Below, piece after piece: positions 38,823 to 50,843 of a stretch of 64,000 nucleotides of DNA; position 1 is the stretch's first letter, and each line of letters starts with the position of its first letter. The stretch spans positions 992,001 to 1,056,000 of the forward strand of contig OZ244065.1 of NCBI GenBank assembly GCA_965215505.1. The letters run 5' to 3'. The position numbers and the translations under genes were made by a program. This DNA is from Capsulimonadaceae bacterium (GTDB taxonomy: Bacteria > Armatimonadota > Armatimonadia > Armatimonadales > Capsulimonadaceae). The notes beneath the pieces are model-generated. The model was given only the letters and a program-made list of their open reading frames with translations, ran no database searches and had not been told where the DNA came from.

Positions 38823-38859
38823 ATTGTCTGCGCCCCACCGGTGTGGTGAGACGCCATGG

Positions 38860-38888
38860 ATTATACCCCAAGGCGCGCGCGATTGCAA
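38860..38888 (-). promoter_or_regulatory. sigma70-type promoter of tuf
   Basis: TTGCAA-17 bp-TATAAT on the minus strand. Confidence 0.8.
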
Positions 38889-38909
38889 CCCCTCCTCCGA
38901 ACACGTTCC

Positions 38910-38938
38910 TTGACACCCGAACGAAATGGGCGTATACT
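38910..38938 (+). promoter_or_regulatory. sigma70-type promoter of the first eCIS gene
   Basis: TTGACA-17 bp-TATACT, back to back with the tuf promoter. Confidence 0.8.
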
Positions 38939-38993
38939 TTGCCTGGCTGCGGTGACCTTTCTGCACCTAAACCTCCGTTCAAGGGGAACGAAA

Positions 38994-40202
38994 ATGATCC
39001 AGGACGTTGATGAGACTTTAAGCGCTCTGTTGTCCGCCGAACTGAGCAGGGTCCCCGGCTGCGGCATTACCGACCGGGGACAGATCACCTTCGACCCACC
39101 CGGCGTGGCGGAGGGAGCGGCGGCAGACTCGATGCGCCTCAACCTCTACCTACACGATGTTCGCGAGAACCGCTCCGTCCGTGAGAGCGGCCTGCGGCTC
39201 ACCCGGAAGCCCGGCGAGGACACGGTCGGCGTGCGCCGCCCCCCCGTCAACCTCGACCTCTCCTACCTCGTCACCGCCTACGCCGGGGGCGACGCGGCGG
39301 GGGAACACCGCCTGCTGTCGGAGGCGCTGGGCGTACTGCTCCGCTTCCAGGACGTGCCGGGAGAGTACCTGCGCGGCGTCTTGGAAGAGCAGGGCGTCAC
39401 GCTCGCCGTGGCCCAGCCGGACCACCTCGCGAGCGCCGACCCGCCCGCGCTCTGGCAGGCCCTGGGGGGGCGGATGCGGACCGCCCTCAGCCTGGTCGTC
39501 ACGGCGCAGTTCAACCCCTACGAGACGCGCTGGACCAAGGTGGTGCGCGAGATGGTGATCGGCGTCGGCCTCGGGACGCCGCCGCACGGCCCGCAGCGCC
39601 CCCTGGACGTTTCCTCCATCCGGGTCAGCGTGGCGGGCGTCGTGCTGGACCAGGGCGCGGAGGCGCCGCTGCCGGGCGCCCGCGTGGCCGTGGAGGGCTG
39701 TCCGGGGGAAGCGACCACGGACGCGGGCGGCTTCTTCTCCCTGCTCAACCTGCCGCCCGGCCCGCACACGCTCCGGGTCAGCCGCGCCGGCTACCGGAGC
39801 CGGGAGGCTCAGGTGGTCGCGCCCGCCCCAGGGCACCCCGAGCAGCTGGAGCCGTGCGTCATCACGCTGCACCCGCTGGGAGACGCCGAGCGCGCCCTGG
39901 AGGCGGCGGCGCGGGCGGCGGAGGCCCGCAGCCTGCCGGGCGTCGCCGACAAAGGCCGCCTGTACCACGCCTCCCTGTCCGGCCTGCTCCGCCGCGAGGA
40001 CGGCCTCCCCGCCGCCTATGTCTCGGTCGAGGCGGGCGGCAAGCGGACCACGACCGACGCCGACGGCATCTACTGCTTCCTCGACCTGCCCCCCGGCCCG
40101 CACACGATCACCGCCGACCTGCCGGGGGTTGGACTGCGCGAAATCACCCCCGCCTCCGCCGCCCCGAGGCAGGAAAAAACGGCCACAAAAAAATCTTCGT
40201 AA
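38994..40202 (+). CDS. eCIS Pvc16/Afp16 (DUF4255) tail terminator with carboxypeptidase-regulatory-like domains
   Basis: MIQDVDETL...ITFDPP...LNLYLHDVREN...LSYLVTAY...EHRLL; two C-terminal TTDA.G.F/Y...LPPGPHT domains. Confidence 0.88.
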   Translation: MIQDVDETLSALLSAELSRVPGCGITDRGQITFDPPGVAEGAAADSMRLNLYLHDVRENRSVRESGLRLTRKPGEDTVGVRRPPVNLDLSYLVTAYAGGDAAGEHRLLSEALGVLLRFQDVPGEYLRGVLEEQGVTLAVAQPDHLASADPPALWQALGGRMRTALSLVVTAQFNPYETRWTKVVREMVIGVGLGTPPHGPQRPLDVSSIRVSVAGVVLDQGAEAPLPGARVAVEGCPGEATTDAGGFFSLLNLPPGPHTLRVSRAGYRSREAQVVAPAPGHPEQLEPCVITLHPLGDAERALEAAARAAEARSLPGVADKGRLYHASLSGLLRREDGLPAAYVSVEAGGKRTTTDADGIYCFLDLPPGPHTITADLPGVGLREITPASAAPRQEKTATKKSS

Positions 40203-40252: not shown

Positions 40253-40668
40253 AGTGCCCCCGAGGAAGACGGCGGCACTCCCGCCAAACTCAGCACACTT
40301 AAGTACCAAGAACTCTCTGCACGACCTATCACGCTGTAAGACCTGTAAGACCCAGTCGCCTGCCCATTCCGCAAGGTTTCATACAGATCGGATTGGACAC
40401 GAGATTCCGCCGCATCCCGAAGGTGCGGCGCCCGAGTGATCCGAACTAGGTGCCGCAGTACGTTTGCCCCACCTCCCTTAAATGCTCGCCAGATGAACGC
40501 TCGCTAAGGTCCTAGCGATTCGCCGCCGCAAGGCTCGAGTCCCGGTGCCCTCCCGTAGGCCCTGACTCTGCCCTTCGCGCCCGGCGCGTCGCCTTCCCGC
40601 TCGTCCTGCCGTAGCCGTAGTTGTTTCACTGTCCAACGCTGAACTACCATCACAAAGGAGCGCCCCCC
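40253..40668 (+). ncRNA. candidate structured 5' leader RNA (~415 nt)
   Basis: Non-coding stretch between promoter and sheath RBS with many stem-loops, two with GCAA tetraloops. Confidence 0.5.
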
Positions 40669-42570
40669 ATGCCAGAGTATCTCGCCCCAGGATTGTTCGT
40701 CGAGGAGATCGACAGCGGAAGTAAACCCATCGAAGGGGTCGGCACCAACACGGCCGCCTTCATCGGCTACGCCAAGAGCGGGCCGTTCAACAAGCCGACC
40801 TTCATCAGCGACTGGACCTCGTTCTGCCGCTGGTTCGGCGAGGAGGAAAACGGCCTCACCGCCGCGCTCTGCGCCGAGCTGGGCATGACGGTGTCCGAGG
40901 TCCGCACCGCCAAAGAGGCCTCGCGCAAGGGCTGGACCGAGTTCGCGTCGGCCGCCGTGGACAAGGCGGCAAGGGAGAAGAAGACGGCCACGGTCAAGAG
41001 CTTCCAGCAGCTCCTGAAGGACTACAAGATTGACCGCAGCGGCCTCCCGTACATGGAGGACAGCTACTTGGCGCATGCCGTCAAGGGCTACTACAACAAC
41101 GGCGGCGGGCGGGCCTACATCGTCCGCATCGCTCACCCCAACGACATGAAGGCGCTGGCGGGTAAGCCGGAGGCGGGCACCAAGCCGGTCCGGACCGAGG
41201 CCGCCCCCGCCCAGATCACGGCCGGGCCGCTCCTGCTGACCGCCCAGAAGCCGGGCGCGGCGGGCAACGACATCAAGGTCGAGGTCGAACACGCGGGCGA
41301 CGGCAATGAGTTCAAGCTCAAGATCACTCAGGGCGACGGTGCCCCCGAGATGTTCCCGCCGAACCCCAAAGACAAGCCGCTCACCCTGGAGAGCGTGGCA
41401 GAGACGATCAACCGGCACTCCAAGCTGGTCAGGCTGGAGGTGGCGAAAGACGTCGCCACCGCCGCGCGCCCCGACATGAAGGTCTTCGTGCTGGCGGGCG
41501 GGGCCGAGGCGACCGAGACGCAGCTCGCCAAGGCGTCCGGCACGACCGCCCTCGCCCCCGCCGGCTCGCCGCTCTCCAACGGGCTTGCCAGCCTGCGCGC
41601 GGACGACTTCATCGGCGACGCCGCCCAGCGCAGCGGGCTGGGCGGCCTGGTCCCCGTGGACGGCGTCAACATGATCGCCATCCCGGACCTGATGGCGGGC
41701 GTCTGGAAGCGCGAGAAGATCCTCGTGGGCGACAAGGAGGAGTTCACCGAGGAGACGCTGGTCCTGGACGACAAGCGCCGCGAGGCGATCCTCGCCGACC
41801 AGGCCGCCCTGGTCCAGCACTGCGAGCTGGCGGGCTACCGCATGGCGATCCTCGACCCGCTGCCCGGCCTTTCGCCGCAGGAGGTCAACGACGTCACGAT
41901 GGGGGTCAACTGGGGCTGTGAACACGGCCAGGCGGCCATCTACTACCCGTGGATCAAGATTGCCGACCCCGTGAACAAGGGCCAGCAGATCTTCGTGCCG
42001 CCGTCTGGCCACATGGCGGGCGTCTGGGCGCGCGTCGGCGGCGAGCGGGGCGTCCACAAGGCCCCCGCTAATGAGGCCGTCATGGGCGCGGTGGGCATGG
42101 AGGTGCAGGTCACCAAGGGCGAGCAGGAGATCCTGAACCCCAACGGCATCAACTGCATCCGCTCCTTCCCCGGCACCGGCATCCGCGTCTGGGGCGCGCG
42201 CACCCTGGCGACGCGCGGCAACCCGTCCTGGAAGTACGTCAACGTCCGGCGGCTCTTCAACTACCTCGAAGAGTCCATGGAGCAGAACCTCCAGTGGGTC
42301 GTCTTCGAGCCGAACGACATGGACCTCTGGGGCCGGGTCCGCCGCAACATCTCCGCCTTCCTCTACACCGAGTGGAAGGAGGGCAAGCTGTTCGGCGGTG
42401 CGCCGCAGGAGGCGTTCTACGTCAAGTGCGACGCCGAGACGAACCCGCAGGAGATGATCGACCTGGGCCGGCTGTACTGCGAGATCGGCGTGAACCCGGT
42501 CAAGCCCGCCGAGTTCGTCATCGTCCGCATCGGGCAGTGGTCCGGCGGCGGCAGCATGGCCGAGGCATAG
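40669..42570 (+). CDS. eCIS contractile tail sheath protein
   Basis: AAGGAG RBS; YLAPGLFVEE, AIYYPW, PPSGH.AG, RGVHKAPAN, VWGART, YVNVRR, VFEPND and PVKPAEF motifs. Confidence 0.96.
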   Translation: MPEYLAPGLFVEEIDSGSKPIEGVGTNTAAFIGYAKSGPFNKPTFISDWTSFCRWFGEEENGLTAALCAELGMTVSEVRTAKEASRKGWTEFASAAVDKAAREKKTATVKSFQQLLKDYKIDRSGLPYMEDSYLAHAVKGYYNNGGGRAYIVRIAHPNDMKALAGKPEAGTKPVRTEAAPAQITAGPLLLTAQKPGAAGNDIKVEVEHAGDGNEFKLKITQGDGAPEMFPPNPKDKPLTLESVAETINRHSKLVRLEVAKDVATAARPDMKVFVLAGGAEATETQLAKASGTTALAPAGSPLSNGLASLRADDFIGDAAQRSGLGGLVPVDGVNMIAIPDLMAGVWKREKILVGDKEEFTEETLVLDDKRREAILADQAALVQHCELAGYRMAILDPLPGLSPQEVNDVTMGVNWGCEHGQAAIYYPWIKIADPVNKGQQIFVPPSGHMAGVWARVGGERGVHKAPANEAVMGAVGMEVQVTKGEQEILNPNGINCIRSFPGTGIRVWGARTLATRGNPSWKYVNVRRLFNYLEESMEQNLQWVVFEPNDMDLWGRVRRNISAFLYTEWKEGKLFGGAPQEAFYVKCDAETNPQEMIDLGRLYCEIGVNPVKPAEFVIVRIGQWSGGGSMAEA

Positions 42571-42643
42571 CCTCCGCCCGTCTCGCCCGGCCGATCGCGG
42601 ACGCCGGGCGGGACTCTCACCCTGACACGAAAGGACAGATACC

Positions 42644-43078
42644 ATGGCAGAAGTAACCGGCGCAGTCAGTTTCTACATCGAGGTGGACGGAATCACCGAG
42701 GGCTTCTTCAAAGAGGTTTCCGGCGGCGACATTGATGTGGAAGTCATCGAGCATCGGGGGTCGGGCAAGACCGGCGAGCAGGTCATGTACAAGATCCCCG
42801 GCAACGCCAAGTACGGCAACATCACCATGCGGCGCGGCGTCACGGACGACACCAAGCTGCACGACTGGTTCCAGAAGATCCTGGACAAGGGCGTCGAGGG
42901 CAACCGCAAGAACGGCTCCCTGACCGGCTACGACAAGGCACAGAAGGAGGTCTACAAGATCAACTTCACCAACGCCTGGCCCTGCAAGGCCAAGGGCTTC
43001 GTGGTAGACGCCTCCAAGAACGAGTTCACCCTGGAAGAGTTCGAGATGTGCGTCGAGCGCATCACCCGCGCCAAGTAG
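42644..43078 (+). CDS. eCIS tail tube protein (T4 gp19-like)
   Basis: FKEVSG, KIPGNAKYGNITMRRGVT, RKNGS and NAWPCK motifs. Confidence 0.94.
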   Translation: MAEVTGAVSFYIEVDGITEGFFKEVSGGDIDVEVIEHRGSGKTGEQVMYKIPGNAKYGNITMRRGVTDDTKLHDWFQKILDKGVEGNRKNGSLTGYDKAQKEVYKINFTNAWPCKAKGFVVDASKNEFTLEEFEMCVERITRAK

Positions 43079-43127
43079 GCGAGGAGGCCGAGTAACGGAA
43101 AACAGTAACCACGGAAAACAGTAACCA

Positions 43128-43478
43128 ATGAACAAATCCGCGAAGACCGGCGGACTGCAAACCGAGTTCGACTTCACCCTGCCGCGCGGCTATGTGGACG
43201 ACGCGGGCACGCTGCATAAGCAGGGCAAGATGCGCCTGGCGACCGCCATGGACGAGATTGCCCCGCTGCGCGACCCGCGCGTGCGCGCCAACCAGGCCTA
43301 CCTGGTCATCATCCTGCTCACCCGCGTCATCACCGCGCTGGGCACGGTCGAGGCCATCGACACGAGCGTCGTCGAGAACTTCTTCTCGGCGGACCTGGGC
43401 TACCTCCAGGACTTCTACCGCAAGATCAACGAACTCACCCCCGAGGACGGCTCGGAGGATGCCGACTCGGGGGAATAG
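43128..43478 (+). CDS. eCIS tail assembly chaperone-like protein
   Basis: TEFDFTLPRGYVDD.G.LH..G.MRLATA.DEI...DL.YLQDFY; located right after the tube gene. Confidence 0.85.
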   Translation: MNKSAKTGGLQTEFDFTLPRGYVDDAGTLHKQGKMRLATAMDEIAPLRDPRVRANQAYLVIILLTRVITALGTVEAIDTSVVENFFSADLGYLQDFYRKINELTPEDGSEDADSGE

Positions 43479-43636
43479 TCCGCTACCCCTCGGACCGTCT
43501 GTACGAGGAGGTAGCCTACATCGCCTACCACTTCCACTGGCCGCTCGACCGGATCCTGGAACTGGAACACGCCGAGCGGCACAAGTGGATGGAGGAGATC
43601 AGCAAGATCAACAAGCGGCTCTCCGGGGGCGACTGA
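43472..43636 (+). CDS. DUF6760-like ORF lacking a start codon (probable -1 frameshift extension of the chaperone); absent from the ORF track
   Basis: GIVRYPSDRLYEEVAYIAYHFHWPLDRILELEHAERHKWMEEISKINKRLSGGD in the -1 frame after G GGG GAA TAG. Confidence 0.85.
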   Translation, partial: GIVRYPSDRLYEEVAYIAYHFHWPLDRILELEHAERHKWMEEISKINKRLSGGD

Positions 43637-43722
43637 CGAAACGCGGCAGCAGCCGCGCTCCCGTCGTCCCCTCTTTTCCTTTTATGGAATAATGTGGTTT
43701 GGTAATCTGATAGAGGAAGGAG

Positions 43723-46700
43723 GTGAAAGACAAAGTGAAGACACAGACTCTGATTGAACAAGCGGGCATTGGAGCGGCCGGGAGAAAAGCCAGTGCGTTC
43801 GCCCACGCGCTCGGGGCGCGTTATCACGCCTACACGCAGCACCTTGACTCGGAAACTTACCAAGACCCCGCCACCCATCAATCAAGAACCTATCAGGATG
43901 GCGATCTTACCGGGCCGTATTATCCTAAGTCTGGATACCACGGGCCGCAGTCCGTGTCGCCGTGGCAGACCCTCACGGGTGCCGGAACGGTCGTGTACGT
44001 CAATGGAATGAACAACAACCTGGCCGCGCATGTGGAAGCCGCACAGGCCACAGCAGACAAAGAGAAACACCCAGTCGTCGGGGTCTTCAATGCTACAGGC
44101 ATCACTAAAGCCACGAAGCTTGCGAGCGCCGTCCTCGGCAAGACTTGGAGTGGGCGCCTCGGGACCGGCTTGGGCCTTGCTGCGGACGCGGCCCAATGCC
44201 TTTCGGATGACGAAGGTGATTTTCTTAACAACCCGGCGATCACAACCCTGGTCGAAGTACTGAAACGCGGCTCAAACCGAAACATCGTCGCACATTCCCA
44301 GGGCACACTCATTGTCACCGCCGCGTTGAGGCGGCTAAAGGACAAGGACAGCAAAAAGCGTCGAGACTTCTCCGGCTACAACATTAAGTTCTTTGGCAGT
44401 CCCGCTTCCACGCGCATCGTCGGCCCGAACTACGTCGACGACACATCCAACAACGACGACGCCGTAGCCTCCTTCGCGATGGATGGCTTGTCGCTGCTCA
44501 GGAACACGCGCCGCTTGCCGAAACTGCTGCTGGCTCAGGTCGGCATTCACACCTCCGCCTTCGGTGATAATGAACTCAGCCGCTACAACAATCGCATCCT
44601 GACGCCGGACCGCGGGAAGTTTATCGGGCCGCACAACTACGAAAATTATGAGAACGCTTCCCCCACTTTCGACGAGTTGAGCAACGGCAGGGCGCACCTC
44701 CCGTCACACACGCCTAAGCTGGAGAAGACGACTTGGCCGGCGACGCTACGCGCCCTGACCGGCTATAACGCTTGGGGGCCTGCCGCCGCCCGCAAGGCGA
44801 CTAGTGTATCACGCTCCGTTCTCTCTGGAACACTTAATGCACGGAGGTGGATCGGTTCTCGCGCACACGCTTTGAAAGACTGGGCAGGTTCGAAGGCTCA
44901 TGCGGCCTTCAGTTGGTCACGAGATACAGCCCGCGCTGCTGGCAACCGGCTTGACGGTGAAGCCCACGACTCCGGCCAGTGGATGCTTCGGAACCGGGAA
45001 TGGATCGGCGATACCCTGCACGAAGCCTCCACAGTATTTGGTGTTCTCGCCGCAGTGTTGGGTGTTACCGCCCTGGCCATTCCTCCTACGGCACCGTTTC
45101 TGGTGCCGGCGGCTCTGACGTTCGGGGCGGCGGCCGCCGCCGCGCGGGCCTGGCACAGCACCAGCCTGGCGGTCGGGACGATTGACGGCAGCGTCCGCCC
45201 GGAGGCGGCGCTGAATGAGGCGAAGTGGGCGGCCGTGGACACGGCCCTGTCGGTCGCCACCGTCAGCGTCTCCAACGCCCGCTTCATCGCGAGGGCGACG
45301 ACCGTTCCTGGGATGAAGGCCGTCGCGCCGATGCTGAACAATCCGGCGAATACGGCCGTGACGCTCAACCACATCTTGCAGCAGACCAACAAGCTGTTCG
45401 GGCTGAAACTCGGCCTGATCCTGCGGAACCCGATGTTGGCTGCACGGCTCGGCTGGGTCAGCAAGGCCCTCGCCACGGCGAAGTTCGTGAAAAAATTGGT
45501 GGAGATGGGCACGTCCCGCCTCCTCCGCATCGCGCACGGTGTAGCGCACGGCATCGCGGGGGGGGCTAAGTCCGCCTGGAACTTTGCCAAGGATACGGGA
45601 ACTGGACTGCGGCATTGGGGCGAACAGAGAGCACATCAGGCCGGTGAGTTTTTCCATAACCTCAAGGAAAAGTACTACCCCTCGCCTAAGCACGACAATG
45701 CCTCGGGCAGCGCCGCGCAGGACATCGGGCAGTGCGCTACCGACAAGTTTGGCATTCTGGGAATGGGCATGCGCAACGCGGCCACCAACACACTGGCCGG
45801 GGTCATCGGACGGCATGGCAGCCCGACGGCCAAAAACAGCGAGCTGGACCTTCACGCCCATTCGCAGAGCGGCATGAGCGTCTCCGAGGCGTTCCATCCG
45901 CGGGACGGTATGAGCGTCTCCGAGGCGTTCCATCCGCAGGGCGGTATGAGCGTCTCCGAGGCGTTCCATCCGCAGGGCGGTATGAGCGTCTCCGAGGCGT
46001 TCCATCCGCGGGGCGGTATGAGCGTCTCCGAGGCGTTCCATCCGCGGGGCGGTATGAGCGTCTCCGAGGCGTTCCATCCGCGGGGCGGTATGAGCGTCTC
46101 CGAGGCGTTCCATCCGCGGGGCGGTATGAGCGTCTCCGAGGCGTTCCATCCGCGGGGCGGTATGAGCGTCTCCGAGGCGTTCCGGCAGTTGAAAGGCAAG
46201 AGGAAGGACGTGCGCGGGCCGGATGTCCCCACGTTCGGGAATGCCGCCTGGTCCCTGCCCACCCATCTGCTCGGCTACCATAACCATGCGTTCGGTTCCG
46301 GTGTCATTCCCACGCGCGGCGGCTCTACCGCGGGCATCGGGGCGCTCCTGCGGACACCATTTAATCAGTCAAATCCTTTGAACCCGTTCCTGGGCCTGCG
46401 AGGCATGGTTTCCACCCCAGATGCCCATTCGCGGGGCGGCATGAGCGTCTCCGAGGCGTTCCATCCGCAGGGCGGTATGAGCGTCTCCGAGGCGTTCCGG
46501 CAGTTGAAAGGCAAGAGGAAGGACGTGCGCGCGCTTCCTTTCCTGACCGGCCGGAAGCCGAACACTGTCTGGAGCGCACTGGATCGCGGGGTTCGCGGCG
46601 GCAGTAGCGGCTTGGAGCGTGGCCTGCGTGGAAGCGGCACGACTCTGGACACCGGCCTGCGCGGGAGGGGCCAGGACTTGGACACGGGCTGGCGCAACAG

Positions 46701-49700
46701 CGCCGCCGTCTATGGTTCCACCGCGCGCTTGGGCGGCGGGATGCTGGATCACCGCCTCAGCCGCAGCGGCTCCCGGGCCGTCAAGGCAGGGCGTTCCGGC
46801 GCGAACGCTGTGGATGACTCTTTCGATGCCGCCAAAGCCCTCCAACGCAGCGGGTATGGCGACCATCCTGACGTCAACCCCGCCGCCCTGCGCGCGGACC
46901 TCCGCAAGCAGAGCAGCGGCTTCCTCCCGGACGGCAATATCCGCGCCAGGCTCGGCGGACACCTCGGCTTCGACCCCGGCGGCGCGCGCCTGCACACCGG
47001 CCCCGCCGCCGCCGCCGCGTCCCGCCGCCTGAACGCCGAAGCCTTCACCATCGGCAACGATGTCTTCTTCGGCGAAGGCCGCTTCGACCCGCACACGCCC
47101 AAGGGCCTGGGCCTGATCGCCCACGAACTCACCCACGTCGGCCAGCAGACCGGCACGACCGGCAGCAAGGCCCGCTTCTTCAGCGAGGCGGGCGGCGACC
47201 AGATGGAGCGCGAGGCCCAGCAAACCGCAGAACACGTCCTCGCGAACGCCGGAAGCCGCAGCGGCCTATTCGTGGAAGACTACGTCCGCGAGTACGAGGG
47301 CGACGGCGGGCTGACCCAGGCCGACCAGTTGCGGCTGGACCGCATCTCGGTCATGGCGCTGGCCGAGGCGCAGCGGATGCTGGCGAGTCAGGGGATGCAC
47401 GGGAGCGTCAACGCGGACGCGCTGGACGTGGAGGTCGAGATTGACCTCGGCGAGATGAGCGACGGGGAAGCGGCACGGGCGTGGGCGGGAGTGATTGTGG
47501 CGGGTGTCAGTCAGAGCGCCCGGCCGGGTGGCACGTTCACGGAGCCATCGCGCCCACATCTCGCCCGAAAAGAGCTGGACTGGGACTGGAGCAGCACGGT
47601 CGCGCCGCAGGACTGGAAGTACTCCGACCGCATCATCTGGAATGACACGCCCGGTGGAGTCGCCGGAAGGCCGGACAACACGTTCATCAAGGCTGCGGTA
47701 TACAACACAAAAGCACTTGATCCCAGTCAGTATGCCACGATTGGACAGCGCAGCAACTATTACGAGGTCATGAGCAACATCATCCAGCAAAACCCGGCAT
47801 GCAAAGACGTGAAGTTCTTCGATGCGGCGGCCCAGGTCACCAATGCCCGGAGCGTGGGCGCCGTCGAGCATTTCTGGGGGAGCGGTTTCGGCAGCGGGCC
47901 GCTCGCGCTCCGCGGCCCGCAGGCGAAATCTATTTACACCGATGTCAATGCTGAACTATTCACGGCAAACATGGGTGTCATCAACAGCTTGCTATACCGA
48001 ACAAAAGTGCCGACAAGCCCACTCGTTCCCGGCTCGACCACCCCCATCTCTGCCACGGCATTTGATCTTGAGATGGTTGAAAAAGAGCAGGGAATTGTTG
48101 AGACTCACCTCGCAAAATACAAGGCCACATTCTCACCAAAGACGATCGCGGAAATCAACCGTGATCTGAACTATAAAGGGGTTTATCGTACCATCGGCGA
48201 GATCACGTTCTGGCCGCTTGGTGACGCGAAGGCAAGCTACTGGGCAAAAGCGGCTCTGGGTGTGGGCGACCTGGACTTTTTCAACCAGACGCACAGGATC
48301 GCCATCGGGAAGGCGAAGGTCTTCGGCCTGCACGGCCTGACCGAGAAAGACTACGCCGCTCACATTCATAGCGCCACCACGCCGTCGTCCGCAGGAGCGG
48401 CAAGTTTATCCACCGCCGGGACACCCGTTGTTCCGCCACAGCGCAGGGCGCTGTCAGGAGCGCCGGCCGATCCAGGCCGATCGGAACGCGCGGCGCAGGC
48501 TGTGGAAGCGCAGGCCACGGCGAGCGCGTTCGCCGACATGCCCTCACGTTCCCTGATGGCAACCCAGTTCGGCTTCCAGCCCTTGCGCTCCCAGGCTTAC
48601 GGCACACTCGAACGGGAGGCCGAACATGTGTCTGCCGCCGTGAGGAGCAACGAACCTCATGCCGCGCCCGCGCTTTCGGCCGCCCCATTGGGCATCCAGA
48701 ATTACGACACTTATGAGCATGTAAAGTTTGGCGGGGAGCCTGGGAACCAGCGGATGGTCACGATCAATGGCGTCGTGGTTTCCTATGGGGAGCTGATCTC
48801 CATGGGTGATTTCTTTGAGAACCCGGACCAGATTTACGACACCCCCCCGGCTCAACTCAAAGCGCTGGTGGAAATGATCCGGCGCCAGGTGGCCGATCCG
48901 AAATCCGTGACCGACAGTGACTGGGCTAAAGTCTCGCCGCGCTACCTCGACCTCGCGACCAAAAACGATGCCCATTTCGCGCCCTCTAATCCTTCGCTGG
49001 TGGCACCTGGCGGCAGCCCCGGCCCGGACCACCGCCAAACCTGGGAACGCCTGCACAAACAGGCGTTGGACCTGGCTCAGGATGGCCAGCCGGACCGGGC
49101 GCTGGCGACCAACGCATTCGGCGATCACTTCCTCACGGATGCGTTCGCGACAGGCCACCTGATCAACAAGGGGGATGTCATGGCAAGGTTCCGGTCCCGA
49201 TTCGCCGACTCGAACACGCGCGCGAGTTTCTTTAAGGCTGTGGCCCGGAACGTCTGGGCGGACTCCTCTGTCGCGGCCTACGTCTCACAGTATGAGACCG
49301 GCGAACCTTACATGCTGGGCTGGCACCCGAACATCGACAGTGCGAGCCGATTCTCCGAGTTCCTCAGTGAAGTTTACAAAGCCCAGCCGGACGTGATCGA
49401 CAACGCAGTGGTCAAAATTATCCATGACCGCCTGAATGACACGGTGGGCGGGCTGGAAGTGCATAACGCGGCGGGACAACTTTGGCATCTTTCCGGTGAC
49501 GACACTCTCAACAGCGAGAGTCTGGATATGGGGCGGCGCGCTGTGGATCAGTCGCAGAAAAACATCTTAGGCATCAATTCCAGTCGTGTTCCCTCGCCTG
49601 GAAGTAAAAATGGCAAGGGATACACGGGAGACCTACAGCCGTTGTACAAAAAGGTATGGAACTACTGTCCAATCCCGACCGATGCCAGCGTCAAGGCGAT

Positions 49701-49833
49701 CCATGATGTGATCGAGACAATGACAAACCCGAGTGCCCAGGAGACCATTGTGGCGGCCGGCGCTATGATTCGAGAAAAAATTCACACGATCATTGAAGAG
49801 GCTGTCCGGCTTAAGAAGCTACGCAAAGCCTAA
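43723..49833 (+). CDS. 2036-aa multidomain eCIS cargo/effector (lipase, DUF4157, phospholipase C-like)
   Basis: AGGAGG RBS before GTG; AHSQG hydrolase; A.AFTIGNDVFF...LIAHELTHVGQQ (DUF4157); YGELISMGDFF...NAFGDHFLTDAFATGH. Confidence 0.85.
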   Translation: MKDKVKTQTLIEQAGIGAAGRKASAFAHALGARYHAYTQHLDSETYQDPATHQSRTYQDGDLTGPYYPKSGYHGPQSVSPWQTLTGAGTVVYVNGMNNNLAAHVEAAQATADKEKHPVVGVFNATGITKATKLASAVLGKTWSGRLGTGLGLAADAAQCLSDDEGDFLNNPAITTLVEVLKRGSNRNIVAHSQGTLIVTAALRRLKDKDSKKRRDFSGYNIKFFGSPASTRIVGPNYVDDTSNNDDAVASFAMDGLSLLRNTRRLPKLLLAQVGIHTSAFGDNELSRYNNRILTPDRGKFIGPHNYENYENASPTFDELSNGRAHLPSHTPKLEKTTWPATLRALTGYNAWGPAAARKATSVSRSVLSGTLNARRWIGSRAHALKDWAGSKAHAAFSWSRDTARAAGNRLDGEAHDSGQWMLRNREWIGDTLHEASTVFGVLAAVLGVTALAIPPTAPFLVPAALTFGAAAAAARAWHSTSLAVGTIDGSVRPEAALNEAKWAAVDTALSVATVSVSNARFIARATTVPGMKAVAPMLNNPANTAVTLNHILQQTNKLFGLKLGLILRNPMLAARLGWVSKALATAKFVKKLVEMGTSRLLRIAHGVAHGIAGGAKSAWNFAKDTGTGLRHWGEQRAHQAGEFFHNLKEKYYPSPKHDNASGSAAQDIGQCATDKFGILGMGMRNAATNTLAGVIGRHGSPTAKNSELDLHAHSQSGMSVSEAFHPRDGMSVSEAFHPQGGMSVSEAFHPQGGMSVSEAFHPRGGMSVSEAFHPRGGMSVSEAFHPRGGMSVSEAFHPRGGMSVSEAFHPRGGMSVSEAFRQLKGKRKDVRGPDVPTFGNAAWSLPTHLLGYHNHAFGSGVIPTRGGSTAGIGALLRTPFNQSNPLNPFLGLRGMVSTPDAHSRGGMSVSEAFHPQGGMSVSEAFRQLKGKRKDVRALPFLTGRKPNTVWSALDRGVRGGSSGLERGLRGSGTTLDTGLRGRGQDLDTGWRNSAAVYGSTARLGGGMLDHRLSRSGSRAVKAGRSGANAVDDSFDAAKALQRSGYGDHPDVNPAALRADLRKQSSGFLPDGNIRARLGGHLGFDPGGARLHTGPAAAAASRRLNAEAFTIGNDVFFGEGRFDPHTPKGLGLIAHELTHVGQQTGTTGSKARFFSEAGGDQMEREAQQTAEHVLANAGSRSGLFVEDYVREYEGDGGLTQADQLRLDRISVMALAEAQRMLASQGMHGSVNADALDVEVEIDLGEMSDGEAARAWAGVIVAGVSQSARPGGTFTEPSRPHLARKELDWDWSSTVAPQDWKYSDRIIWNDTPGGVAGRPDNTFIKAAVYNTKALDPSQYATIGQRSNYYEVMSNIIQQNPACKDVKFFDAAAQVTNARSVGAVEHFWGSGFGSGPLALRGPQAKSIYTDVNAELFTANMGVINSLLYRTKVPTSPLVPGSTTPISATAFDLEMVEKEQGIVETHLAKYKATFSPKTIAEINRDLNYKGVYRTIGEITFWPLGDAKASYWAKAALGVGDLDFFNQTHRIAIGKAKVFGLHGLTEKDYAAHIHSATTPSSAGAASLSTAGTPVVPPQRRALSGAPADPGRSERAAQAVEAQATASAFADMPSRSLMATQFGFQPLRSQAYGTLEREAEHVSAAVRSNEPHAAPALSAAPLGIQNYDTYEHVKFGGEPGNQRMVTINGVVVSYGELISMGDFFENPDQIYDTPPAQLKALVEMIRRQVADPKSVTDSDWAKVSPRYLDLATKNDAHFAPSNPSLVAPGGSPGPDHRQTWERLHKQALDLAQDGQPDRALATNAFGDHFLTDAFATGHLINKGDVMARFRSRFADSNTRASFFKAVARNVWADSSVAAYVSQYETGEPYMLGWHPNIDSASRFSEFLSEVYKAQPDVIDNAVVKIIHDRLNDTVGGLEVHNAAGQLWHLSGDDTLNSESLDMGRRAVDQSQKNILGINSSRVPSPGSKNGKGYTGDLQPLYKKVWNYCPIPTDASVKAIHDVIETMTNPSAQETIVAAGAMIREKIHTIIEEAVRLKKLRKA
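45868..46183 (+). repeat. 36-bp in-frame tandem repeat, 9 units (last partial)
   Basis: GGCGGTATGAGCGTCTCCGAGGCGTTCCATCCGCRG = GGMSVSEAFHP(R/Q). Confidence 0.97.
46423..46531 (+). repeat. second block of the 36-bp repeat (2 units) with the same flanks
   Basis: AHSRGGMSVSEAFHPQGGMSVSEAFRQLKGKRKDVR duplicates the first block's ends. Confidence 0.93.
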
Positions 49834-50288: not shown

Positions 50289-50843
50289 ATGGCAGGCATT
50301 CTGGACAGCGTGAAGGGCGGACGGGGGAAGCTCGGCCACATCGGGGGACAGCTCGGCGCACATGCGCGGCTACCTCGCGGCCTAGTGGCGGCACCGACCG
50401 GGCCGAGCGATCCGCAGCGGCGGGACCCCTACGTCAACCTCCGCTTCGCCATCGAGATAGACCACGTCACCGTCGCCCTCTTCACGGAATGCTCCGCGCT
50501 GACCATCGAGACGGAGACCTTCGAGTACCAGGAAGGCGGCGTGAACACCTACACGCACAAGCTGCCGACGCGCACCAAATACGGCAACATCACCCTGAAG
50601 CGCGGCATGGACGACTCACAGGAGCTGTACCAGTGGTATCTGCTCAACGTGAGTGGCCAGACCAAGCGGCGGAACCTCTCGATCATTCTGTATGACCTAT
50701 ACGGCGGCCCGGCCCGACGCTGGGACCTCATGGGGGCCTACCCCTGCAAGTGGACGGGGCCGGACCTGCGCGTCGATACGGGCGCGGTCGCCATCGAAAC
50801 TGTGGAGTTCGCCCACTCCGGACTGATTCCGAGCGGCAACTAG
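50289..50843 (+). CDS. second eCIS tail tube protein (gp19-like)
   Basis: DPY...F.IEI...FTECS.L...YQEGG.N...KLP...YGNITLKRG...AYPCKWTGP...AIET.E. Confidence 0.93.
   Translation: MAGILDSVKGGRGKLGHIGGQLGAHARLPRGLVAAPTGPSDPQRRDPYVNLRFAIEIDHVTVALFTECSALTIETETFEYQEGGVNTYTHKLPTRTKYGNITLKRGMDDSQELYQWYLLNVSGQTKRRNLSIILYDLYGGPARRWDLMGAYPCKWTGPDLRVDTGAVAIETVEFAHSGLIPSGN

Follow-up and report, generated by a model that had tools for sequence, protein, structure and literature searches.

A putative programmed −1 ribosomal frameshift linking DUF6760 to the tail assembly chaperone of a contractile injection system

Background

Xu, Hendrix and Duda are said to have described, in 2004, a conserved frameshift of the tail assembly chaperones of long-tailed phages. 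In phage lambda, gpG and gpGT are the two products of overlapping frames 5′ of the tape measure gene, and the slip site is G_GGA_AAG. In phage P2, which has a contractile tail, the gene after the tube gene yields the short product gpE and the −1 extended product gpE+E′, which have a common N-terminus; the slip site is T_TTT_TTG, the frameshift is annotated in NC_001895, and the extension, a helical segment of about 55 residues, is often annotated as a separate gene (“GpE family phage tail protein”) in P2 and P2-like tailocins. This report concerns a gene pair of similar layout at positions 43128-43636 of a 64,000-nucleotide window of the genome of a Capsulimonadaceae bacterium of the Armatimonadota (assembly GCA_965215505.1, contig OZ244065.1, positions 992,001 to 1,056,000 of the forward strand), in which the open reading frame (ORF) of a chaperone-like protein is followed, in the −1 frame, by a segment encoding the Pfam domain DUF6760. 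The host machine is a chromosomal injection system and not a virus. Comparison of the locus with its relatives makes it very probable that a −1 ribosomal frameshift yields a short and a long chaperone from one gene.

A literature search found no paper naming DUF6760 and no report of a frameshift or a tail assembly chaperone pair in contractile injection systems (CIS), including those of the extracellular type (eCIS); the main texts, supplements aside, of papers on the CIS of Streptomyces and haloarchaea (including PMC11126660) contain no mention of frameshifting or of a chaperone for tail assembly. Since frameshifting of the chaperone is well established in phages and tailocins, the advance is the extension of a known principle and not a new one; what appears to be new, and is strongly supported by the comparisons below, is chaperone recoding of the P2 E/E+E′ type as a conserved feature of contractile injection systems.

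Anatomy of the junction

The chaperone ORF (43128-43478, plus strand, taken as frame 0) predicts a G- or gpE-like short product of 116 amino acids (aa) and ends in TCG GGG GAA TAG (43467-43478). The proposed slip site G_GGG_GAA (43469-43475, plus strand) takes its first G from the third base of the Ser codon TCG; directly 3′ of it is the 0-frame stop TAG (43476-43478, plus strand), which overlaps the −1 frame codon ATA (43475-43477). The −1 frame is open from 43220, following a TAA stop at 43217-43219, to a TGA at 43634-43636, and its translation is ...GGIVRYPSDRLYEEVAYIAYHFHWPLDRILELEHAERHKWMEEISKINKRLSGGD. The 53 codons from 43475 (43475-43636 on the plus strand with the TGA) match DUF6760 (PF20546) with an E value of 2.5e-16 and 59.9 bits against a cut-off of 27, spanning profile positions 6-52 of 89, and would constitute a C-terminal extension like T or E′. 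DUF6760 is present in a single copy in the 6.18-Mb genome. There is no ATG, GTG or TTG in the −1 frame of the window ahead of the conserved DUF6760 body, and no ORF reaching 40 aa is called there. A sequence-only reading of this DNA had already pointed to the chaperone terminus and to a DUF6760-like frame lacking a canonical start, both of which were confirmed at 43128-43636, and had proposed that slippage on G_GGG_GAA gives a 169-aa fusion beside the 116-aa product; the arithmetic of a tandem slip agrees, as 43128-43475 joined to 43475-43636 predicts a product of 116 + 53 = 169 aa.

Contigs from three other public runs cross the junction without an insertion or deletion (for example, records spanning 43408-43591 and 43407-43515), and a 387-nucleotide (nt) metatranscriptome contig of a close relative runs gap-free from 43253 to 43638. 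Assembly error is excluded by these independent contigs.

The gene pair is very probably a single recoded gene of the P2 E/E+E′ (lambda G/GT) type, working for a contractile injection system. The majority of ribosomes would read 43128-43478 and stop at the TAG to release the 116-aa chaperone, while a fraction would slip back one base on G_GGG_GAA, where tRNA-Gly could re-pair from GGG to GGG and tRNA-Glu from GAA to GGA, the middle position then being a G-U pair. After slipping, ribosomes would read 53 further codons in the −1 frame to make the 169-aa protein, with DUF6760 as its C-terminal gpE′- or T-like extension. The slip is probably stimulated by an 11-bp hairpin 6 nt downstream, perhaps aided by the stop codon next to the slip site and by a GGAGGA on its 5′ side. 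By analogy with phage chaperones, both products would help the inner tube to assemble around a protein of the lumen (a tape measure or tape-measure-like cargo), and both would be absent from the finished particle. The sequence anatomy, its conservation across the family, the chaperone fold, the remote homology of DUF6760 to gpE′ and the occurrence of in-frame fusions are shown by the comparisons below; the slippage, its efficiency, the tRNAs concerned, the client and the part played by the hairpin are inferred from them.

The GGAGGA, a Shine-Dalgarno-like hexamer at 43454-43459 (plus strand), lies 9 nt 5′ of the slip site and is a possible upstream stimulator. A Shine-Dalgarno-like 4-mer occurs 3-20 nt 5′ of the slip site in 53 of 83 related loci, a count made with no composition control and carrying no weight.

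Fold of the chaperone and remote homology of DUF6760

The 116-aa protein is predicted to have the tail assembly chaperone fold. Its sequence matches phrog_508, “tail assembly chaperone” (E 9.4e-6), and its AlphaFold model (mean predicted local distance difference test score, pLDDT, 86) consists of a folded core at residues 13-102 and a disordered, acidic, Gly-rich tail at residues 103-116. Structure comparison against representatives ranked two chains of chaperone type highest, 3klu with Z 6.7 and 2ob9, which is the tail assembly chaperone of HK97, with Z 6.4, followed by the uncharacterised chains 3fgx (Z 5.3) and 5ir0 (Z 4.8), with the rest at 3.2 or below; these Z values are modest. Among the BFVD viral models, the best matches were T4-like baseplate hub assembly proteins (E about 1e-4), and several tail or tape-measure chaperones and Mu FS-gp41 were also matched. 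A Foldseek search of the PDB with the same model placed the chaperone of HK97 first, at E 0.43, and nothing reached E 0.001; a profile search of PDB sequences found nothing, a tblastn search of phage records found no match to the chaperone, and NCBIfam contains no family for either the chaperone or DUF6760. The resemblance to lambda and HK97 lies in a modest fold match and in the order of overlapping frames, together with the lambda-type slip site G_GGA_AAC in four relatives; the sequences are not similar, and a contractile tail takes the place of the flexible one of lambda and HK97.

DUF6760 is supported, by profile comparison, as a remote homologue of the P2 gpE′ extension and not as a member of its family. 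The relevant Pfam family, PF06528 (Phage_P2_GpE), is the −1 frame extension of P2 gpE+E′, matching that segment with an E value of 2.1e-22. Sub-threshold matches to PF06528 were found in 22 of 38 DUF6760 members (best E 7e-4), and the DUF6760 of the window scores 14.4 bits, below the cut-off of 23. With hhalign, DUF6760 aligns to the P2 gpE′ segment at 79.7% (E 1.5e-5) and to an alignment of gpE′ from seven phages at 84.7% (E 6.7e-6), pairing ...VAYIAYHFHWP...LEH.ER.RW... with ...ADIAVIFHWPPSE...L.EL..WR..., so that the FHWP...W motif is common to both. The suggestion of the sequence-only reading that DUF6760 is the T segment is thereby supported, in the form of a remote homology to gpE′. In contrast, the N-terminal chaperone domain has no detectable similarity to that of P2 gpE (hhalign probability 0.08%). 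Other differences from P2 are that the slip site is G-rich, that a conserved hairpin is made of the first conserved codons of the extension, and that the next gene encodes a 2036-aa protein with a DUF4157 domain and not a classical tape measure.

A weak tblastn match to DUF6760 (E 0.1) was found in Bordetella myophages, where it is read in the −1 frame and extends from the 3′ end of the chaperone gene, which it overlaps, through an unannotated gap 5′ of the tape measure gene. In models of a natural fusion, DUF6760 forms three helices; one of five models has a pLDDT of 71 and the others about 40, so that they are informative on secondary structure only. The DUF6760 profile matched only designed coiled coils and carbonic anhydrase among PDB sequences (E 0.5-1.6).

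The spike plug Cis6/Afp6/Pvc6/Alg6 is described as a small helical protein of about 55 aa that is encoded near the tube genes and required for assembly (PMC8894136, PMC12546770), and DUF6760 resembles it in size, helical content and location. The plug, however, is encoded by a separate gene and stays in the particle, and the DUF6760 profile recovered no Cis6/Pvc6 plug chain among PDB sequences even at E 10.

Frame and slip sites in related loci

A scan for the chaperone with one genome per species yielded 511 loci, of which the best 80 were used, all from metagenome-assembled genomes of Armatimonadota and Chloroflexota. Both parts of the pair were located by hidden Markov models (an earlier survey by regular expression had missed 23 of 85 loci). 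The chaperone and DUF6760 are both carried by 83 of the 85 loci, the other two lying at a contig start on the other strand and at a contig edge. DUF6760 is in the −1 frame relative to the chaperone in 81 of these 83. The exceptions are L015, in which an additional frame change (an indel) has occurred in the low-complexity tail and the frame that ends in ...LGE-stop is still one base ahead of DUF6760, and L050, in which DUF6760 is broken.

The slip site is similarly placed in nearly all loci. The 7-mer that begins 15 nt before the codon of a conserved Tyr in DUF6760 is GGGGGAA in 34 of the 83 loci, GGGGGGA in 18, GGGGGGG in 13 and GGGAAAC in four, with other forms in the rest; with few exceptions the G run begins either 15 or 18 nt 5′ of that codon, and in most loci it is a homopolymer of 5-8 G. 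Wherever strict heptamers were found (G_GGG_GGN, G_GGA_AAC, C_CCU_UUA), all were in phase for X_XXY_YYZ. Two Dehalococcoidia loci (L038, L055) lack the G run and have instead an in-phase C_CCU_UUA about 70 nt upstream, after which the acidic linker is read in the −1 frame. The 0-frame stop lies between 8 nt before and 28 nt after the Tyr codon in 81 loci; in L038 and L055 it precedes that codon by 62-68 nt. Ribosomal slippage is almost the only ready explanation for the occurrence of four kinds of slip site at a single junction. Conservation of GGGGGAA or other slippery heptamers had been named in advance as a check on the frameshift, and an in-phase site is indeed kept across the related loci. 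In four loci of the same genus as the window, GGGGGAA is kept while the preceding bases vary, and the −1 codon that overlaps the stop is ATG in two and ATA in two.

The downstream hairpin

A predicted stem-loop at 43482-43515 (plus strand), the proposed stimulator, begins 6 nt 3′ of the slip site. Its arms GCUACCCCUCG and CGAGG-A-GGUAGC, which encode R-Y-P-S and Y-E-E-V-A of the extension, form 11 pairs, with a single A bulged out, and enclose a loop of 11 nt. In a 40-nt window its fold is −19.2 kcal/mol here, and the median over 81 loci is −20.3 kcal/mol. Pairing was evaluated in 76 of 79 distinct 75-nt junction windows, omitting L038 and L055 with their other slip site and the broken L050. 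In the 24 Armatimonadota rows, 97.7% of stem cells are paired, versus 27-66% when the partner arm is slid; three pairs are changed on both sides, and none of 500 shuffles attains the pairing or the covariation score of the real alignment. For the 52 Chloroflexota rows the paired share of stem cells is 94.4%, versus 33-60% when slid, and one pair has six double changes.

Codon usage within the arms was computed for 82 loci, again without L050. The Val codon of the hairpin is GTA in 76 of 82 loci, a codon used for Val elsewhere in these genes at 6.1% (window) or 6.9% (pooled); the Pro codon is CCC in 71 of 82 (elsewhere about 30%), and the Tyr codon is TAC in 80 of 82 (elsewhere 50-71%).

The hairpin is absent where a frameshift has no need of it at this position. 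Two loci in which chaperone and DUF6760 are naturally in frame (L086 and L087, described below) have no hairpin (about −5 kcal/mol), and the loci with C_CCU_UUA have none at the standard place but form another stem-loop 5-7 nt 3′ of the site that they use. Slip site, spacer of 6 nt and hairpin may be viewed as one conserved recoding cassette, whose slip site is G-rich, unlike those of lambda and P2 (T_TTT_TTG).

Natural in-frame fusions

A search for longer DUF6760 proteins produced 163 candidates, which were scored. P0124 (177 aa) contains the chaperone, a CPHC motif and then ...ERLGGVTRYPP... in frame, and P0280 (180 aa) is also in frame, with a sequence within DUF6760 that differs from that of P0124. 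A phmmer search of 1.84 billion representatives with P0124 yielded two more clean fusions, P0183 (150 aa) and P0197 (159 aa). The P0183 family comprises four 90%-identity clusters of 150-151 aa, 76-100% identical and all with PF20546; among relatives of P0183, three of 150-151 aa are 76-79% identical to it and the fourth is an unfused form of 107 aa. The DNA of two members of this family (L086 and L087, GC content 0.39-0.43) is in frame and has neither G run nor hairpin, whereas the sister locus L088 reads CTA GAG GGG GGA ATT TTT... with a stop 14 codons on, so that a −1 shift at G_GGG_GGA is needed to reach DUF6760. The existence of in-frame fusions indicates that the joined polypeptide is a real, selected product, and fusions without the G run indicate that the Gly-Gly it encodes is not required by the protein.

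Four other candidates (P0136, P0152, P0250 and P0263) were dropped because they have scrambled stretches and look like read-through of frame errors. A search for chaperone homologues gave 7072 relatives, the best 120 of which are all about 107-130 aa and uninformative on fusions. The top matches of the P0124 search were not fusions to DUF6760; in P0127, P0129 and others, two chaperone domains are fused in tandem in one protein of 244-251 aa. Some lineages have two adjacent chaperone genes, and in L086-L088 it is the second gene alone that is joined to DUF6760.

Points against the frameshift and alternative explanations

Several observations weigh against a frameshift. The 83 loci are kin, and their counts are not independent events. 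G_GGG_GAA is in phase but is not a strict X_XXY_YYZ heptamer, and we know of no test of its slip efficiency. GGGGGAA occurs 13 times in the window against an expectation of 13.4, which makes the heptamer by itself a matter of chance; it is the conservation, phase and context of the heptamer in related loci that exceed chance. The 100-nt fold downstream of the slip site in the window is not more stable than those of shuffled sequences (z −1.21; 26 of 200 as stable), so the case for the hairpin rests on its conservation. Most columns of the stem are also constrained by the conserved residues that they encode, for which reason the synonymous codon use is the stronger evidence for the hairpin. Two Chloroflexota loci, L047 and L070, have lost the hairpin (−9.5 and −3.1 kcal/mol) and kept the G run, as G7 followed by GTGA, i.e., a GTG start overlapping the stop; they may be lineages shifting to separate initiation. 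P0124 and P0280 share a 90% cluster with ordinary forms of 113 and 119 aa, and their in-frame forms could be variants in G-run length or sequencing errors. Finally, the third codon before the conserved Tyr, which overlaps the 0-frame stop in most loci, is ATN, GTG or TTG in 61 of 83 loci, ATG in 14 of these, and separate initiation is possible in many loci, as the NCBI pipeline annotates DUF6760.

This last point is the basis of the alternative that survives best, although it is unlikely overall: chaperone and DUF6760 would be two genes, the latter translated by termination and reinitiation at the codon that overlaps the stop (ATA 43475-43477 here, ATG or GTG elsewhere), and the G run would be either an element resembling a ribosome-binding site or a mere code for Gly-Gly. 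ATGA or GTGA overlaps exist in a minority of loci, some start codon of translation table 11 is present at that codon in the 61 loci just mentioned, RefSeq records separate coding sequences (CDS) with a 4-nt overlap in five genera, and the Pfam model of DUF6760 begins about 5 residues ahead of the matched body. Against this, there is no ATG, GTG or TTG within 10 codons of the conserved Tyr in 63 of the 83 loci and none at all in 54, and 12 loci have no table-11 start codon of any kind. In seven loci the 0-frame stop is 3′ of the Tyr codon, so that reinitiation after it cannot yield the conserved N-terminus. The G run ends only 0-6 nt before the putative start, very close for a ribosome-binding site, and is replaced by canonical slippery heptamers in six loci; the viability of the joined protein is demonstrated by the in-frame fusions, whose loss of the G run also shows Gly-Gly to be dispensable; and the homologous segment of P2 is made by frameshift only, according to the annotation of NC_001895.

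Less probable still, and indeed improbable by any account, is transcriptional slippage, in which RNA polymerase would gain or lose a G in the run so that some mRNAs encode the fusion in frame. A homopolymer of 5-8 G in most loci would suit this mechanism, and variants in run length may account for the in-frame forms in an otherwise ordinary cluster. However, the run in the window is no longer than five G, the G_GGA_AAC or C_CCU_UUA of six loci are slip sites for ribosomes and not homopolymers, and a conserved hairpin 6 nt downstream suits ribosomal slippage. A contig from an RNA library crosses the site without an indel and gives no sign of a dominant edited RNA, with the caveat that contigs drop rare variants and the library may contain DNA.

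That the offset is an assembly artefact or a recent frameshift mutation in a former single gene, as the in-frame versions elsewhere might suggest, has a negligible probability given the identical offset in 81 of 83 loci of two phyla and in 8 of 8 loci of five more, the agreement of contigs from other runs at the junction, and the conservation of both the slip site and the stop of the short product.

Other phyla and current annotation

When plasmid records were searched with the chaperone by tblastn, 46 records were matched, including Streptomyces, Deinococcus, Ralstonia, Nostoc, Burkholderia, Rhodococcus, Paenibacillus and haloarchaea. Ten were fetched, of which two have the chaperone without DUF6760 and eight carry DUF6760, in all eight cases in the −1 frame with an in-phase heptamer: G_GGG_GAA in Nostoc and Streptomyces clavuligerus, G_GGG_GAG in Ralstonia, Burkholderia and Paenibacillus, G_GGG_GGA in Rhodococcus, and G_GGA_AAT or G_GGA_AAC in Halogeometricum and Haloferax. 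The arrangement is thus common to Cyanobacteria, Actinomycetota, Pseudomonadota, Bacillota and haloarchaea. The haloarchaeal plasmids (L092, L099) have an ATG overlapping the stop and no hairpin, which makes separate initiation a fair alternative in that lineage. The experimentally studied CIS cluster of Halogeometricum borinquense carries the chaperone and DUF6760, with G_GGA_AAT 9 nt before the stop and an ATGA overlap; its description reports neither a plug nor a tape measure homologue.

In RefSeq, DUF6760 has a CDS of its own, overlapping the preceding one by 4 nt, in Nostoc, Halogeometricum, S. clavuligerus, Burkholderia and Haloferax. On the Nostoc plasmid (L091) the annotated start is ATA, and on the Rhodococcus plasmid (L096) a later start cuts off the conserved N-terminus; both are annotation artefacts of an unmodelled frameshift. 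The proposed recoding would provide both a function and a mechanism of expression for DUF6760, a domain of unknown function that annotation now treats as a gene in its own right, in some cases starting at ATA or lacking part of the N-terminus. It could also matter for particle engineering, in which omission or mis-cloning of the overlapping pair could explain failed assembly.

The CIS of Streptomyces and haloarchaea are reported to have no typical tape measure, and those of haloarchaea no plug either (PMC10066040, PMC11566945). Such systems nevertheless still carry a phage-type tape-measure chaperone, and its retention predicts a client in the lumen. One may speculate further that the frameshift is ancestral and near-universal in CIS with this chaperone (at least seven phyla, haloarchaea included), operating through a slip site G_GGG_GAR that is not among the described efficient bacterial heptamers, plus the hairpin, and that the ratio of the two products sets the number of copies of lumen cargo, with DUF6760 as the cargo handle. 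This broader proposal is tentative and on balance doubtful; if true, DUF6760 would be a lever for loading engineered cargo.

In many sequences from outside the Armatimonadota (for example L089, L091, L094, L096 and P0124), a single CxxC motif (CPKC, CPHC or CPRC) is found in the tail of the chaperone just 5′ of the slip site. The chaperone of the window has no CxxC, and DUF6760 has invariant His residues (HFHW, LEH). A metal site formed in the fusion by CxxC and the His of DUF6760 is a speculation.

The injection-system cluster and a possible client

Judged from its predicted sheath, tube, cap and eCIS core genes, the cluster around the pair appears to be a contractile injection system locus of the eCIS type; its products match PF04984/PF17482, PF06841 (two genes), PF14065 and PF13699. 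A Pvc16-type cap gene (38856-40202) and a sheath gene (40621-42570) are followed by a tube protein gene of the T4 gp19 family (42644-43078, plus strand; PF06841, E 4.6e-33), directly 5′ of the chaperone ORF. On the 3′ side of the pair are a giant ORF of 2036 aa (43723-49833, plus strand) with an eCIS core/DUF4157 domain (PF13699, E 3.3e-24), a 105-aa ORF, a second tube-family gene (50289-50843) and a 1423-aa ORF.

The giant protein looks like a multi-domain effector from its sequence. The DUF4157 domain is at aa 1071-1145 and includes the HExxH motif HELTH (aa 1134-1138). There are also a lipase-like AHSQG (aa 190-194) with a weak match to the DUF676 esterase family, a strongly hydrophobic stretch (aa 434-479), and, at aa 717-925 (about 45870-46500), some 14 near-identical 12-residue repeats GGMSVSEAFHP(R/Q) with few interruptions. 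The sequence-only reading had suggested this protein as the client of the chaperone, and it is a possible one, as a candidate tape-measure-related effector. The nearest described counterpart is Tme (PMC11126660), a tape-measure-related effector from the CIS of Streptomyces davawensis. Tme is likewise the largest ORF of its cluster, with DUF4157, a hydrophobic segment and a position upstream of a gene resembling the tube initiator; it differs in that its DUF4157 domain is near the N-terminus and not in the middle of the protein, and no nuclease domain was detected in the giant ORF by Pfam search.

The chaperone pair is not tied to a giant gene of this type. Of the 83 loci, 34 have a tube-like gene immediately after the pair, 17 a long ORF that continues beyond the end of the fetched sequence and 32 some other gene, and a tube-family gene follows the pair in Nostoc, Burkholderia and haloarchaea. 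Since DUF6760 is very conserved, its partner is more likely to be a conserved core part, or the conserved end of a lumen protein.

Some minor features flank the pair. A 16-nt unit, ACGGAAAACAGTAACC, is present in two tandem copies at 43095-43126, ending 1 base 5′ of the chaperone ATG at 43128, and there is no Shine-Dalgarno sequence between this repeat and the ATG. A promoter and terminator scan of 42500-44000 found nothing between the chaperone frame and the DUF6760 frame. On the 3′ side of the DUF6760 stop, a short GC stem (CGCGGC-AGCA-GCCGCG, 43642-43657) coincides with a fall in the summed contig depth of an RNA-library run from about 358 to about 12 just past 43647, contig depth being a poor measure; the stem and the fall in depth could reflect an attenuator that separates the giant gene from the chaperone pair.

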